DNA of 8,398 nucleotides from a virus (taxonomy: Duplodnaviria > Heunggongvirae > Uroviricota > Caudoviricetes). The number at the start of each line of letters is the position of its first letter. The first letter of the stretch is position 1. Of this stretch, positions 290 to 7,372 are shown one piece after another. Location: the IMG/VR virus record IMGVR_UViG_2740892028_000003, one strand, 5' to 3'. The notes below the pieces were generated by a model, which saw nothing but the letters and a program-made list of their open reading frames with translations, ran no database searches and was not told the DNA's origin. A program made the position numbers and the translations under genes.

Positions 290-627
290 CAGATCACCAC
301 TTCGTCAAACTGACACGAAAAATCGGTATAGGTGATATGTTCTGTCGCTGACCACGTTCGACACACCACTCTGATTTTTCTGTTAATACCCGGCGGGCGC
401 CAAAAAAAAGATTTATAGCCTCCATGCCGAGCCAGAAACAGTTCAAATGAATTACGTTCATTCGCCTCAACCCTGAAATCACAGGTAAAAACACGCAGAG
501 AATGATTAAGTCCGTTTGGGCTTCGTTGTTCATAACCATCGCCAAATCTTACAGTTTTTATCGATGGCTTATTTTCTGTTTTCATTCCATCCTCTGGTAA
601 CCAGTAAAATTCTTCCGTATTAGCCAC
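289..627 (-). CDS. M: Minor tail protein M (lambda gpM-like), 112 aa, GTG start
   Basis: ORF-track frame 289..627. The start codon at 627-625 is GTG, preceded by GGAGGAA with ~6 nt spacing. The protein aligns colinearly with lambda gpM as I recall it (shared VRFGDGY.QR, GLN, HGG.KSF.W.PP, V.C..WS and a C-terminal F.EVV motif). It overlaps the tape measure stop by 8 nt and the L start by 1 nt. Confidence 0.88.
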
Positions 628-3600
628 TTAACATTCCTCCATCACGTCGCATATTTAACAGAGCGCCCTGCACCCGCTGATCAACCATCCCCATAAGTGC
701 TTTTATTGCCTGAGGACCAATCTCTCCATTCTGGCCGTCATTTTGAATAGTGATTTGGTATACAGGGGCATAAGTAATATCTCTGCCTCCATTACCACTT
801 TTACTATTAATAGCTCTGACACCAAGAGAACCATCGGAAGTTCGCGTTAATGGCATAATAGCTTCCGGTCCAGCCTCACCAAAAACACCAGCTCCTTTTG
901 CAAAAGCAAAAAATTGCGGGGAGTCATAAATACCGTTCGAATATGTACTCAATGACGGAGACTCATAAACACCGCCCTTTGCATTCGGAATAAATTTACT
1001 AATAGCACTCCCGATAGTTCCTAAAATACCCCCAGAAGAACTGTTACTAATGCTGTCGAAAATCCCAGTAATTGAAGCCTTTAATGCAATTCGGCTAAGA
1101 TCTGAAATCACGGAAGTAGCGAAAGAACGAAAATTTGCCTTGCCTGTCGTGACAAAATCACCTAGCGCATCGGTCATCCCATCAAACATCTGAGTCGTGG
1201 TTGATTTTATTTGCGCACCGATATCCTTAGTGTCATCCAGCCAGTTATTGAATCCCTGGGAGGCACCACTAATCCAGTCTCCTGCCTGAATATCGAGCTG
1301 CTCGTTTTTCTGGCTGACAATTTCTTTTTCTCGCTCCAGAGCATCATTCAGAGCCTGCATTTTCTCCTGAAAAACATGATTTGACATTCCACGGGATTTA
1401 TCTGCATAGTCACGTTCAAGTTGCAGACGCTGATTGTTATATTCACGTTCAATCCGCAGTAATTCCTGCTGGCGTTGCTGATTTTTATCGCCAACCCCAT
1501 AACCAGCAATCTGAATATCATACCCCTGCTGACGATTATCAATCGAAGCCTGCAATGAATCACGCCATGCGGCTATTTCGGCGGATTCTTTGATTAGCCT
1601 GTTATTTTTTTCAATCGCAACATTTTTCTCCATCAACGCGGTTATTTCTTCCCGGTGTAAGAGAAGCGATTTCTGATCCTGGGTTAATTTCGATGACGGT
1701 CGTGACTCCAGGTCGGCAATCTGCTGACGCCACTTAACCAGTTCCTGTTCAGAGGAACTTAATTTAACGGTCAATTCAGCTTGTGAACTTAGTAACGCAT
1801 TCTGTTGATTCAGATGATCAATCATTCGTTGGGCAGCATCATCCGAATAACCTTTCGCCTTTGGTTGCTTTGGATCTTTATAACGCTCATTTATTTGAGC
1901 GATAAGATTATTATATTCTTCCTTTGAATACTGATTCTTTAGCTTTTCCAGTTTTGCAAGTTCACTAGCTCTCTGCTGCTCCCGGGTCTGATATTGTTTT
2001 GAAAAAGCATCTGCTCTCTGTCTGAGTTCAATTCCTTCCTGTTGTCGCTTGTTGTAATCGTTTATTGATGAATTTAGTACGTCCTGAGCAATTTTTTCTG
2101 CTTGAAGTACGCCCAATTGCTGCTTTAATCGTGCCAGCTTTTTATTTTGAGCTCCGCCATCTCCAATGCCACCTAACCCGAAAACTCCGGGTCGGGTATT
2201 TTTTTCTATTTCATCAATTTGACGGAGAACATCTGAGATTTTTTGATCAAGGGAGGCCTCACGGCCAATATCCAGCATGGAATCCCATGCCCATTTTGCG
2301 GAGTCTGCGACAGCTTTCCATGCAGTCTCAAGATAACCAAGATTTTCTTTAATCTGGTTGGTGCGCTGGATCATTGAGGATGAGTATGCTTCTGTCGCAA
2401 TGCGGGCGGCCTCCTGCTGGTTCCCTTCATCCTGTAGCGCCTTAATCTGGTTATAAGTCGCAAGTGTCAGAAAATGGTACTGATCATTAAGTTTTGATAT
2501 AGCACTGACAGGATCCTTTGCAATTTCATTGAAGTCATTAACCAGTTGTTCGGTTGATATTCCTGTTACTTCGCTCGTTTTTACTATCGCTGTCGTCACT
2601 TGCTCCAGCGAACTGCTCGCTACCTTTCCCGAACGCACAAGCTGGTTTAATACTGCCGCCGCAGCGCCAGTTGTCGAATCAGCCGCATTCCCGGCACGTT
2701 GAGCTATATCGGCCAATTGCCCGCTGGTTGTCCCCAACTGATTTCCGGTAAGAATAAGAGATTTATTAAATTCGTCCTGCTCCTGAGAGCCTTTATAGTA
2801 AGCCAGCCCTAAGACGCCAACGGCTGCTGCGGCCAGGGTAAAAGGATTAATTAATCCCAGCACATAAGAACCTACACCTTTGATCGCCGGGCCAATCCCA
2901 CCGAACATATCTTTTAGCTGGCCGCCCTGCTGCATTAACACCATAAATGGCGACTGACCAGTGGACAACCCAACAACAATATCCGTCATTTGTGCAGGCA
3001 ACATGCGCATAGCAAAAGCCGTTTGTTTTGCCGACATTCCGGTTTTGCTTAATTGCGATTGAGTAACCTCAAGCTCACTCCGCATAGCACGAAGTTTTCC
3101 AGAAAGCTCCTCATACATTTCAGGAGAAAGCATCCCCTTAGCTTTTGCTTCATTGAGCTGTTTCTGTTGTTCTACCAGACGATTAAAAGCAGTTCCGACA
3201 GGATCAAGTTGAGCAATCAGACGTTGCAAAGCAGCAACCTGTTCATCATGTGCTTTTGCTGCTTCTCGCTCTGCCTGAGCCTCTCCGGTAAGCTCTCGCC
3301 GTGTTTCCTGTATTTTTCGGCTATAATTCTCAAACTGAGAACCATTTATTTTCCCGGATGCAAACGCAGCATTAAGTTCATCCTGCTGTTGTTCAAGATT
3401 TCTTAGCGCCGCAGCCAGAGGGTCGATCTTGTCCAGCATTCTTTGAAAGACCTGAGCCTGCGCTTCCTGCTGGGCGGCAGCAAGTTTTCCGGCCTTCTCG
3501 GCTTCTCTCTGCGCTTGCGCAACCCCGCTCAATTCCTCTGTGGTTTCATTAAGTTTACGGACAAGAAATTCATATTCTTCTTTATCAATAAGCCCTTTAT

Positions 3601-3853
3601 CGAAAAATTTCTTTAATTCAGAATAGCGTCGACCGACAGTATCAATTGCGGCACCAACTGGATCAATAGCTGCTTTTAATTTTGCGAGCGCGTTCTTCTC
3701 ATCTTCTGTTGCCTTAGTCACTTTCCCTGCGCTATTTGCAGCAGTTTCCCCAGCCTGCGTCATTTTGACTAATGAGGAGGCCAGATTGTCAGCATTATTT
3801 TTCGCTCCAGTGCTATCAATAATTATTGCGAGACGCGAGGTTTGCTCTGCCAT
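620..3853 (-). CDS. H: Tail tape measure protein (lambda gpH-like), 1077 aa
   Basis: Largest ORF in the window, ATG at 3853-3851 preceded by an in-frame TGA and by AGGAG ~9 nt upstream. It sits between the chaperone and gpM homologues. It shares with lambda gpH, as I recall it, the MAE N-terminus, the [10 protein letters not shown]...GQSP...LQQGGQ.KD.FGG block and the C-terminal NDG.NG.IGP.A.KA....MRDGG block. The N-terminal third is Ala/Glu/Gln/Lys-rich coiled-coil-like sequence, typical of tape measure proteins. Confidence 0.95.
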
Positions 3854-3870
3854 TCATTAAAACTCCTGAC

Positions 3871-3896
3871 AACAAAAAACCCACCGAAGTGGGTTT
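3871..3896 (-). terminator. Rho-independent terminator-like hairpin just upstream of the tape measure RBS
   Basis: On the minus (mRNA-sense) strand: 5'-AAACCCAC-UUCG-GUGGGUUU-3' (3896..3877), a perfect 8-bp stem with a C(UUCG)G tetraloop, running straight into a U-rich tract (UUUGUUGU, 3876..3869). The tape measure SD (AGGAG) and ATG follow within ~20 nt. Confidence 0.55.
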
Positions 3897-4016
3897 CAGG
3901 CGACATAATAGTAGATATAGCGATTACGAGGCCACGCAATGCTTTTCTCCAGGAGCATCATCGATTTAATTAAAGACACCATCACATCTCTGTAACAGAG
4001 TGTACGTAATTAACAA

Positions 4017-4786
4017 CTACACACACTGCTCCTGAAAATACTGGTCATCCAGTGCAAAGATCACTGCTTCAAATTCATCGCGCTCAATCAATACCGGATG
4101 AGTGGCTAAATATTCATTTATCTCTGTCAGAGATAAAGGCAAAGGCACCCCAGTCATTCCAGCATAACGTCGGGCACGGGATATTACCGAATAGGCGTAC
4201 AACAATTCCTTAAGCACCGGGTCTATTTCTGGTTCCGGTATCGGTGGCAACCTGAGTTTTTCTCGCTTCCATCTTGCCTTTTCACCCTTTTCTCCCCCGA
4301 ACTCCGATAACCACCGCTGGGCGGCTATGGCTTTTTTATCGTATCCTGCTTCTGCTGCTCTTTACCCTGGGCGATGCTGGCTGCTTCTGCAAGGATCTGC
4401 CAGTACAACTCCGGATTCTGCTTAAGCAGCGCGATCCCTCGTTCTGGCGTATATTCCAGTGCAACCTCAACACCATCAACCAGTTCACCAACCCCTTTCC
4501 AGTCTTTCAGCAGATAACGAGCAGCATTATCAATGAGTAAATCATCAACAGAATCCACCTCGGAAACCTTTGCAATATCAAACTCCTTCGTTCCGACGTG
4601 CAAACTGGCATCCATTTTCTCAATGTGGCGACGGATTAATGCATTACGGGAGCGATACTGATCGTTATCGCTGCTTGCCACCAACAGTTTTAACCCGTCT
4701 ACAGGTTTTAAGTCCTTCATTGGGGTAAACCAGCGTTCACCACCGATGATAATTTTCTGATTAAGAATAAACATCCATAACCTCAT
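4017..4786 (-). CDS. Tail assembly chaperone GT fusion, predicted product of a programmed -1 frameshift at 4337..4331 (G frame 4786..4331, then -1 frame to the stop at 4019..4017)
   Basis: The -1 frame is open with no stop from the slippery heptamer through to the stop at 4019-4017, reading ...DTIKK/AIAAQRWLSEFGGEKGEKARWKREKLRLPPIPEPEIDPVLKELLYAYSV...QEQCV. The track's 4017..4250 ORF is the tail of this frame, reported from an internal TTG. A G/GT pair immediately upstream of the tape measure gene is the conserved siphovirus arrangement. Confidence 0.7.
4325..4786 (-). CDS. Tail assembly chaperone (lambda gpG analogue), 153 aa; a second ATG at 4774 with a better-spaced GAGG may be the true start (149 aa)
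   Basis: ORF-track frame 4325..4786, assigned by position between the major tail protein and tape measure genes. It is acidic and ends two codons after an A_AAA_AAG slippery heptamer. ATG 4774-4772 is preceded by GAGG with 6-7 nt spacing; ATG 4786 is preceded by GGGGGG at ~8 nt. Confidence 0.78.
   Translation of the reverse strand: MRLWMFILNQKIIIGGERWFTPMKDLKPVDGLKLLVASSDNDQYRSRNALIRRHIEKMDASLHVGTKEFDIAKVSEVDSVDDLLIDNAARYLLKDWKGVGELVDGVEVALEYTPERGIALLKQNPELYWQILAEAASIAQGKEQQKQDTIKKP
4331..4337 (-). other. -1 ribosomal frameshift slippery heptamer A_AAA_AAG (recoding signal)
   Basis: Minus-strand codons ATA AAA AAG CCA TAG: the heptamer A-AAA-AAG sits in the zero frame (X_XXY_YYZ) two codons before the G stop. 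The + strand shows it as CTTTTTT at 4331..4337. Confidence 0.7.
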
Positions 4787-4795
4787 TCAATGCGC

Positions 4796-4822
4796 CCCCC
4801 TGTAGTGCAGTACCACAGGGGG
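4796..4822 (-). promoter_or_regulatory. Intercistronic stem-loop between the major tail protein and chaperone genes
   Basis: Minus strand 5'-CCCCCUGU-(11-nt loop GGUACUGCACU)-ACAGGGGG-3': a perfect 8-bp stem with 6 G-C pairs, no U-tract after it. The 3' arm G-run lies 8-9 nt upstream of ATG 4786. Confidence 0.4.
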
Positions 4823-4834
4823 AATAACGGAAAA

Positions 4835-5797
4835 TCAACTAATCGCCTCAGCACTGGCTTTTGCGATCACGGCAGCCGGGGAGGCTTTTTTTCTGGTTAT
4901 CGTAGGTGCTTCATCTGCTGCGGTAATGCTCAATTGAACCTGGATAATGTCGGTATTACCCCCATCAGGCCATTCACCTGACATCTGAACCTTCGGGAAA
5001 CTGAAAGTGTATGCCCCCTCTCCATTCGAAAGCGTGAAGCTGAACGGAACTGTTTCTCCAGTCAGTGTTTTACTCCAGATTTCCCACGCGGCTTTAGACC
5101 ATGAAAGCGTCACCGTACCGGACGGTGTAAAAGTAGTCGGAATATTTGCTCCTGCATAAGGCGAGCCAGTCCCGATACAACGCTGTGTCTGGAGTTTGTT
5201 ATCGAACTGAATATCAAAACTGTCGATACAAAAACCGTTACCTCCGGCAACACCATTCAGGCTTACTGCTGAAACCTCCTTAAACGAATAACGTAGCTTT
5301 CCTGCACTATCCACAGGTTCGCCTTTGATAAAATTCGTATCATCGGCCTTTGATTCCCAGTCCAGCCCGGCAAAGGTTACGGTCGCCGTAATATCGCCGT
5401 CGTTAGGGATCTGCATTTTCCATGAGCCAACCTGCGCTCCTCTGACAACAGAGGCAATTCCGACATCGGACGCATAGGTCGCCAGAGAAAATGTTATTCG
5501 CTCATTCCCCATTGTCAGAGAATCACCTGACCATTCCGCGCCGAAACAGGATGCAAGAAAATCATCATGTTGACCCCAGCGAAATTTGGTACCAACATCA
5601 CCGCCAACATCCACAGTGCCAGGCGTCGCCCCCTGAGCCATCCGGGAGCCACCAATCTCATTATTTTCGCCTTTATTCTGGGTGGGTTTTACTCCCCAGC
5701 TTGTGCGTTTTAATAAACTCCAGTCACCACTTGCTGGTGTGGTGCCTGCAACTGTCTCCCGGATAAATGCCGAGATAACCTTTGCACCTGAACTCAC
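4835..5797 (-). CDS. Major tail (tube) protein, 320 aa, GTG start
   Basis: ORF-track frame 4835..5797. The start at 5797-5795 is GTG with a strong AGGAGG 5 nt upstream. Gly/Thr/Ser-rich, beta-type composition. Assigned by conserved position immediately upstream of the G/GT chaperone pair; it does not obviously resemble lambda gpV. Confidence 0.7.
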   Translation of the reverse strand: MSSGAKVISAFIRETVAGTTPASGDWSLLKRTSWGVKPTQNKGENNEIGGSRMAQGATPGTVDVGGDVGTKFRWGQHDDFLASCFGAEWSGDSLTMGNERITFSLATYASDVGIASVVRGAQVGSWKMQIPNDGDITATVTFAGLDWESKADDTNFIKGEPVDSAGKLRYSFKEVSAVSLNGVAGGNGFCIDSFDIQFDNKLQTQRCIGTGSPYAGANIPTTFTPSGTVTLSWSKAAWEIWSKTLTGETVPFSFTLSNGEGAYTFSFPKVQMSGEWPDGGNTDIIQVQLSITAADEAPTITRKKASPAAVIAKASAEAIS

Positions 5798-6980: not shown

Positions 6981-7372
6981 CCCCCCCTCACAACCCTGAC
7001 TTGTGAGCGACTAAGTCCGTACGGTTTCAGCAGTGCTATCGCAAGCTGTAAATCGGGTTCAAGCAATGCAGTGCTGTTTGCTGGCAATTCAGCAAATGAT
7101 TTCGATACACTGACCCCGTCAGCCGACACGGCTTTACTGATAACAACGCCAGAATCATTTTTCTGCTGAAACAACTTACCGACAGAGGCAATTCTGGCTG
7201 CATATGCTCCCGCAAGTTTTACCTCTTCCGGAATACGGGATGGGTTAATTTTCAGGCCGAAGCCATTAAGCCAGGCATTAGCCATTAAAACAGCTTTATT
7301 TTTAGCGTTCTCACTCGTCCAGGCGTTCCCAAACGCATTATCAACGTCATCACAGGTCACGTAAGTGATCAT
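6977..7372 (-). CDS. Head-tail connector (adaptor) protein, 131 aa
   Basis: ORF-track frame 6977..7372, with AGGAG 7 nt upstream of the ATG. The N-terminal region (MITYVTCDDVDNAFG...KAVLMANAWLNG) resembles the gp6-like head-tail connector family in general character. It is the first gene of the connector block after the head genes. Confidence 0.5.
   Translation of the reverse strand: MITYVTCDDVDNAFGNAWTSENAKNKAVLMANAWLNGFGLKINPSRIPEEVKLAGAYAARIASVGKLFQQKNDSGVVISKAVSADGVSVSKSFAELPANSTALLEPDLQLAIALLKPYGLSRSQVRVVRGG

Follow-up and report, generated by a model that had tools for sequence, protein, structure and literature searches.

Between the tail tube and tape measure genes of an Escherichia coli prophage, two overlapping open reading frames (ORFs) are very probably joined by a programmed -1 ribosomal frameshift of the G/GT type, in which tandem tRNA-Lys slippage on the heptamer A_AAA_AAG would yield both a tail assembly chaperone, G, and its extended fusion form, GT. 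The DNA analyzed, referred to here as the window, is a single stretch of 8,398 nucleotides (8.4 kb), and all positions are those of the window. Taken together, the analyses support the site as a genuine and strongly conserved G/GT -1 frameshift which is unannotated in RefSeq and ordinary in kind, -1 frameshifting of G and GT being textbook knowledge for long-tailed phages.

In the window lies the head-tail module of a lambdoid E. coli prophage of the Rac type. Every gene of this head-to-tail morphogenesis module lies on the minus strand, and the gene order around the site is tube, G, T, and tape measure, with G and T overlapping one another between the tube and tape measure genes (Table 1). 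The region tested, positions 3800..4900, is 100% identical to the corresponding sequence of E. coli 042 and APEC O1. Of 5426 complete E. coli genomes, 1075 contain related sequence, as do ten deposited Escherichia/Salmonella siphophage records.

Table 1. Genes and sequence elements of the head-to-tail module, with their positions in the window.
Feature	Position	Strand	Remarks
P22-coat-like major capsid protein		-	Truncated by the window edge
Adaptor Ad1, head closure Hc1, Neck1, tail terminator		-	Listed between capsid and tube in the module
Tail tube (major tail) protein	4835..5797	-	Pfam Phage_tube_2, 1.6e-31; PGAP "phage tail tube protein"; directly upstream of G
G, tail assembly chaperone	4325..4774	-	PHROG 313, E 5e-47
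Slippery heptamer A_AAA_AAG	4337..4331	-	Zero frame of G: last base of ATA, then AAA and AAG
T segment, -1 frame after predicted slip	4017..4331	-	PHROG 1189, 1.8e-36
Local hairpin just after heptamer	4304..4330	-	Core stem AUAGCCGCC / GGUGGUUAU, loop CAGC
Tape measure protein	620..3853	-	Pfam TMP_2, 5.4e-82, and Tape_meas_lam_C, 1.9e-25; PHROG 24; downstream of T
M-like tail protein		-	Listed after tape measure in the module

G closes on the minus strand with GAT ACG ATA AAA AAG CCA TAG. A single codon (CCA) separates the heptamer from the stop codon of G (TAG 4327..4325), and the zero-frame product ends in ...QKQDTIKKP. Following a -1 slip, the next codon would be GCC (4331..4329), and reading would continue for 104 codons to TAG 4019..4017. 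The -1 frame is itself open from position 4361, immediately after TAA 4364..4362, for 114 open codons in total. The translation of the T segment begins AIAAQRW and ends QEQCV (in fuller form AIAAQRWLSEFGG...DDQYFQEQCV), such that the predicted GT fusion, with the junction ...DTIKK|AIAAQRW..., would comprise 148 + 104 = 252 aa. The predicted junction region spans DTIKKAIAAQRW, and trypsin cuts at the K-K junction, giving the peptide AIAAQR.

A prior reading of this DNA from its letters alone (the sequence-only reading) had placed A_AAA_AAG in the zero frame just before the G stop, which the sequence matches to the base, and had counted about 104 codons in the -1 frame up to the TAG at 4019-4017, where we find exactly 104. 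Its junction, DTIKK|AIAAQRW, agrees with the translation of the slipped frame, and the frame read-out bears out its explanation of an apparent 77-aa ORF (4017..4250) as the distal part of the -1 frame read from an internal TTG.

The heptamer alone is not significant, as AAAAAAG occurs 4 times in the window versus 3.25 +/- 1.7 expected. In-frame heptamers of the general form X_XXY_YYZ number 12 in the 2467 codons of the window genes. Among the heptamers that were followed, the one in G is the only one that leads into a long -1 frame other than that of the next gene; those in the tube gene (4892), the tape measure gene (2630, 2204, and 1610), and orf74 (7553) are open in the -1 frame for 0-28 codons. 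An in-frame heptamer at 6986 was likewise set aside, its long -1 frame being merely the overlap of the Ad1 and Hc1 genes. The G heptamer nevertheless stands out from chance because it is conserved at the homologous position across genera.

A tblastn search with the GT fusion against 50,697 phage records retrieved homologues in phages of Klebsiella, Erwinia, Pseudomonas, and Acinetobacter, the majority split into two pieces that lie in different frames. A scan of IMG/VR yielded 80 loci, and a scan with one genome per GTDB species yielded 38 loci, located in Escherichia, Shigella, Dryocola, Scandinavium, Pantoea, Citrobacter, Mixta, Providencia, Siccibacter, Pseudomonas, and Acinetobacter. In every one of the 80 IMG/VR loci and the 38 species-level genomes, the frame of T is -1 with respect to that of G. 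Collapsed to distinct loci, the homologues number about 43, span Enterobacterales, Pseudomonas, and Acinetobacter, and extend down to about 25% protein identity. About 42 of these 43 share an X_XXA_AAG-type site at a single alignment column (A_AAA_AAG in 17, G_GGA_AAG in about 18, and G_GAA_AAG in 7), the exception being Erwinia phage Gungnir39, which has GCA_AAG_TAA only, without a full heptamer. Right after the slip-type site, T opens in the homologues with the pattern K-[AV]-[ILVT]-x4-[WY]. The slip site is fixed, whereas the stop codon of G varies in position from 1 to 35 codons past the AAG codon, and the TAG that ends G in the window is changed to TTG in seven IMG/VR loci.

The variability of individual codon positions, calculated as the mean pairwise variability among 16 Enterobacterales sequences, follows the same boundary. 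Upstream of the heptamer, position 3 of the G frame is the most variable (0.63 versus 0.35 and 0.28 for the other two positions), and downstream of it, position 3 of the T frame is the most variable (0.50 versus 0.25 and 0.21), i.e., the heptamer marks the exact point at which the wobble phase passes from G to T. Judged from these substitution patterns, both frames are under purifying selection. Within the heptamer, bases 1-3 in the same 16 sequences are AAA in 12 and GGG in 4 and are never mixed, and the remaining AAAG is invariant. The accompanying codon change from AAA to GGA replaces Lys with Gly in G, yet the site stays slippery, and selection therefore acts on the nucleotide pattern. We regard this comparative evidence as the decisive part of the case for the frameshift site.

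Profile searches provide support for the identity of the products. G alone matches PHROG 313, annotated as "tail assembly chaperone", with an E-value of 5.1e-47 (161.6 bits, profile positions 13-149 of 258). The fused GT matches the same family at 1.4e-51 (176.6 bits, residues 5-253 onto positions 13-246 of 258), and does so in one collinear stretch running through the junction. A second chaperone family, PHROG 8233, also aligns with the fused GT across the junction (81-235), and PHROG 1189, the family matched by the T segment, is one of unknown function. Against Pfam, the T segment retrieved PF23812 (Phage_TAC_18) with 20.4 bits and an E-value of 6e-4 over residues 32-100, below the gathering threshold of 27; this family was matched weakly by three of five diverse T segments (best E 2.5e-4), and we consider the match suggestive only. 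No lambda-type chaperone domain of Pfam was matched on G, NCBIfam held no model matching G, T, or GT, and a search of PDB sequences with a 15-sequence GT profile returned a spurious designed-repeat match alone (E 6.5). The G proteins of G/GT systems are described as sharing a conserved spiral chaperone fold (Pell et al. 2013, as cited in PMC5313236). The structures predicted here with AlphaFold2 are of low confidence because the alignments are shallow (mean pLDDT of 53.2 for G from 33 sequences and 63.7 for T from 18 sequences), and a Foldseek search of these models against BFVD returned no match with E < 0.8.

The start codon of G is likely ATG 4774 rather than ATG 4786, an alternative in-frame ATG which adds 4 residues to G (149-153-aa ORF, 4325..4786). 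A Shine-Dalgarno sequence, GAGG (4784..4781), lies 6 nt upstream of ATG 4774, and homologues begin with MFILNQ, MLII, or MLIL at the position of this codon. With the start at ATG 4774, G is 149 aa long (MFILNQ...DTIKKP) and GT is predicted to be 252 aa long.

A different account of the locus would make T a separate small gene with its own initiation, at TTG 4250 (77 aa) or GTG 4217 (66 aa), and the heptamer incidental. This is how the locus appears in public annotation: PGAP calls G as a 119-aa TTG-start piece (4325..4684, "protein YdaY") and T as a 66-aa piece starting at GTG 4217 ("hypothetical protein"), no ribosomal slippage is annotated here in PGAP/RefSeq, and PGAP and the submitters of phage records keep G and T separate. 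Public gene callers likewise yield stand-alone T ORFs, with T present in a collection of 5.8 billion proteins only as 25 clusters of 60-138-aa "hypothetical proteins", and AAAAAAG, as noted, is not rare in the window. Several features of the T frame nevertheless argue against separate initiation. In the window, this frame contains no ATG, GTG, or TTG between TAA 4364..4362 and TTG 4250, and the 27 start-less codons that precede TTG 4250, which in the window fall outside the G ORF, show protein-level conservation between genera, with W, E, and K among the invariant residues, and have their wobble at the third position of the T-frame codons. In homologues, the earliest codon at which T could start lies mostly 28-77 codons after the site and in one case 3 codons after it, a scatter which means that the start is not positionally conserved; in a few GC-rich Pseudomonas loci there is a TTG upstream, inside G. 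No Shine-Dalgarno sequence is present at TTG 4250, which has only an abutting AGG, or at GTG 4217. The T ORFs that have been called cover 57-89% of the conserved segment and have inconsistent N-termini, the usual signature of an ORF that gene callers fail to start properly, and the heptamer is maintained by block covariation. We consider a separately initiated T gene very improbable.

Two other alternatives were considered. If RNA polymerase were to slip on the six consecutive A's at the site, an extra A in some transcripts would fuse G to T with the ribosome unslipped, and such slippage is documented for long runs of A or T (PMC1088944; PMC3711429). Productive slippage, however, has been placed at runs exceeding 7 A or 8 T (PMC3711429); in roughly half of the homologues the site is G_GGA_AAG or G_GAA_AAG, with runs of 3-4 bases, which suit ribosomal but not polymerase slippage, and X_XXA_AAG is conserved in the zero-frame phase, which is relevant to the ribosome only. 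With six A's only at this site and half of the family lacking the homopolymer, transcriptional slippage is very improbable. The last alternative supposes a defective prophage whose single GT gene was split by a homopolymer indel, through decay or mis-sequencing, so that programmed recoding plays no part. It would be in keeping with the frequent defectiveness of Rac-type prophages, the truncation of the K-12 copy, and the existence of deletion-fused variants such as P0001 and P0123. It is hard to reconcile with a two-frame arrangement found in 1075 complete E. coli genomes, in isolated phages, and in three bacterial orders, or with purifying selection in both frames that switches exactly at the heptamer. 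No natural in-frame GT orthologue was found either, save one deletion mutant: the search of the protein collection with G returned no annotated slippage product, and the sole full-length fusion, P0001, is a deletion mutant on one contig. We judge decay or sequencing error to be the least probable of the explanations considered.

Returning to the ribosomal frameshift, we searched the surroundings of the site for elements that might stimulate it. The hairpin that follows the heptamer (Table 1) begins 2 nt after it, has 9 bp, and has a predicted energy of -14.7 kcal/mol. Shuffled sequences fold equally well (z = -0.35), and no equivalent was found in the Klebsiella, Providencia, or Citrobacter homologues; the shuffle score and this absence rule it out as a conserved stimulator, and a stimulatory role for it in the window is possible but unsupported. 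An AGGA located 6 nt upstream of the heptamer was considered as a Shine-Dalgarno-like stimulator and rejected, as it is not conserved and is absent in the Providencia homologues. Rfam returned no match at E <= 1 on 3800..4900.

In E. coli dnaX (tau/gamma), a Shine-Dalgarno-like element about 10 nt upstream and a downstream hairpin raise the efficiency of frameshifting to about 50%, and the -1 frame terminates at once. In contrast, no conserved stimulators were found at the window site, where neither the AGGA nor the hairpin is a conserved counterpart of the dnaX elements, and reading on in -1 would append a domain of 104 aa. The heptamer itself is shared, with dnaX having an identical A_AAA_AAG and the same E. 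coli tRNA-Lys (PMC3711429).

The system of reference for the locus is phage lambda, whose G/G-T -1 frameshift was described by Levin, Hendrix & Casjens 1993 and Xu, Hendrix & Duda 2004, 2013, 2014 (as cited in PMC5009743). As described by Xu et al. 2004 (cited in PMC10885494 and PMC5009743), the G/GT frameshift keeps its position although the protein sequences are dissimilar. For comparison, we rebuilt lambda GT from NC_001416, with the slip at G_GGA_AAG giving ...PVSAGK|VFDGEL.... The two loci are alike in having overlapping ORFs between the major tail and tape measure genes, a -1 slip site of the form X_XXA_AAG near the end of G, a T without a start codon, and no conserved downstream stimulator, and they are similar in size (G 140 and GT 279 aa in lambda, 149 and 252 aa here). 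They differ in the heptamer, which is G_GGA_AAG in lambda and A_AAA_AAG in the window, though the lambda form is common among the homologues of this locus; in the G stop, six codons past the site in lambda and one here; and in the tube protein, which belongs to the Phage_tube_2 family rather than being a lambda gpV. The sequence-only reading had held that the locus reproduces the G/GT recoding of lambda. This stands for the mechanism and the gene position but not for sequence similarity, since a 15-sequence GT alignment compared with lambda GT by hhalign scored a probability of 0.4% (E 0.14), i.e., no detectable similarity. The same reading's assignment of the genes as G and T is borne out by synteny and by the PHROG 313 match that is collinear across the junction. 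As such, the locus appears to work like lambda G/GT with no detectable sequence homology, the same mechanism operating in a different protein family.

A distant relative within the protein family of the window locus is found in Acinetobacter phage vB_AbaS_TRS1 (NC_031098), in which the chaperone CDS, gp18/gp19, is already annotated as joined (frameshifted). The T domain of TRS1 is a distant homologue with 39% identity over the T core, the gene order is the same, and the slip site, GTG GGA AAG TCA, falls at the homologous column. Its differences from the window locus are the G_GGA_AAG heptamer, a G that runs about 27 codons past the site, and a protein which is very divergent from that of E. 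coli.

On the frameshift reading, expression of the locus would proceed as follows. Most ribosomes would stop at TAG 4327..4325 and release the 149-aa G. In a minority, the tRNA-Lys pair occupying the P and A sites on A_AAA_AAG (4337..4331) would slip back one base and re-pair on AAA AAA, after which reading would go on for 104 codons in the -1 frame and end at TAG 4019..4017 with the 252-aa GT fusion. Slipping by the ribosome at the heptamer itself is what we infer from the sequence comparisons, and its efficiency is probably a few percent. As in lambda (PMC5009743), the G part shared by both products may bind the tape measure protein and the T extension may recruit the tube protein; these binding partners are proposed on the lambda model. 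A fixed, low slip frequency would then set the G:GT ratio for tail assembly, and neither G nor GT would end up in the virion. The ratio of G to GT in lambda is 30:1 (review PMC5009743), and a low-efficiency site without a stimulator would give a similarly low GT:G ratio.

The name "protein YdaY" given by PGAP to the window gene derives from ydaY (b1366) of the Rac cryptic prophage of E. coli K-12, the product of which is near-identical to the C-terminal 119 residues of G. Preserved at the K-12 gene are the sequence ATA AAA AAG CCA TAG and, after it, a T frame of 104 codons that is intact but unannotated. It differs from the window in that the first ~30 codons of G are deleted, next to ynaK, and the K-12 Rac prophage is without most of its morphogenesis genes, whereas the module in the window is intact. 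With the heptamer and the complete T frame both kept, laboratory E. coli might make a YdaY-T frameshift protein. The broader proposition, that the recoding site of K-12 ydaY is also live and that the chaperone family tolerates progressively degenerate slip sites, seems to us doubtful. The degenerate sites meant are G_GAA_AAG in Pseudomonas and GCA_AAG_TAA in the Erwinia phage; if the proposition were true, they would imply that slippage of a single tRNA-Lys on A_AAG suffices for setting the G/GT ratio. A search of the accessible literature retrieved no paper tying ydaY or the Rac prophage to frameshifting. Outside that search lies the survey of Gurvich et al. 2003 (EMBO J 22:5941), which reportedly covers E. 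coli K-12 genes with an in-frame A_AAA_AAG and may list ydaY.

The understanding of the frameshift mechanism is unchanged by this locus, and a specialist would not be surprised by it. Its main value lies in annotation: the G/GT frameshift assigns a function to both ORFs, and the start codon of G is corrected. The family is well sampled, and with A_AAA_AAG, G_GGA_AAG, and G_GAA_AAG replacing one another at the homologous position it could also serve to train frameshift predictors. For E. coli K-12, the frameshift locus accounts for the orphan gene ydaY as a tail assembly chaperone remnant.

The annotated start of G, the tail assembly chaperone gene, needs revision. PGAP begins the gene at TTG 4684 on the minus strand, which yields a 119-aa product named "protein YdaY", a start that is copied from the truncated model of the gene in E. 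coli K-12. Since the homologues and the PHROG profile instead begin at ATG 4774 on the same strand, preceded by a GAGG Shine-Dalgarno sequence at 4784..4781 (with an alternative ATG at 4786), we consider the RefSeq start to be about 30 codons too short. No domain match was retrieved for G from a Pfam set lacking PF27119, the precomputed Pfam domain assigned to its homologues.

In the K-12 copy itself, ydaY, the heptamer context ATA AAA AAG CCA TAG is intact, as is the following T frame (the -1 frame segment), with all 104 codons present. Both remain unannotated in the gap of 473 nt that separates ydaY from ynaA. The heptamer also persists in relatives that have lost the G stop: in seven IMG/VR loci (L063, L065-L069 and L072) the TAG has become TTG, and G continues in its own frame for approximately 34 extra codons that overlap the T frame. 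In three further loci (L082, L085 and L086) the sequence reads CCx TCG, and G is extended by 24 codons.

The sole homologue without the full heptamer is that of Erwinia phage Gungnir39 (positions 1984..1995), where G ends in GTC GCA AAG TAA and T resumes as K|VIEAQEW. If this phage frameshifts, it must do so by slippage of a single tRNA-Lys on A_AAG beside the stop codon. In the window, the tube gene contains an in-frame A_AAA_AAA_G run, which is probably incidental, as its -1 frame stays open for only 12 codons.

Additional features of the chaperone region and its K-12 counterpart
Feature	Location	Strand	Remark
In-frame A_AAA_AAA_G run, tube gene	window 4885..4892	minus	17 codons ahead of the tube stop
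Chaperone gene copy ydaY (b1366), locus L128	E. coli K-12 MG1655, NC_000913 1425621..1426290		truncated N-terminus
Intrinsic-terminator-like hairpin	window 3876..3897	minus	textbook form: AAACCCAC-UUCG-GUGGGUUU, then a U-run

A terminator-like hairpin of -15.8 kcal/mol (z = -2.35) lies in the 163 nt that separate the tape measure ATG (3853) from the T stop (4017), within what should be a single late operon. Transcription of the tape measure gene might be attenuated at this point, or the hairpin might be read through under antitermination.

A natural in-frame fusion of G and T, 240 aa long, was found in E. coli (NB16F79_39920, protein cluster P0001), having arisen through a deletion directly upstream of the heptamer (...QILAEAGYDKKAIAAQRW...). 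In further clusters (P0122-P0125), the ...LPEPEIDPV of T is joined directly to unrelated or G N-terminal sequence. These junctions suggest recurrent deletions in decaying prophages.
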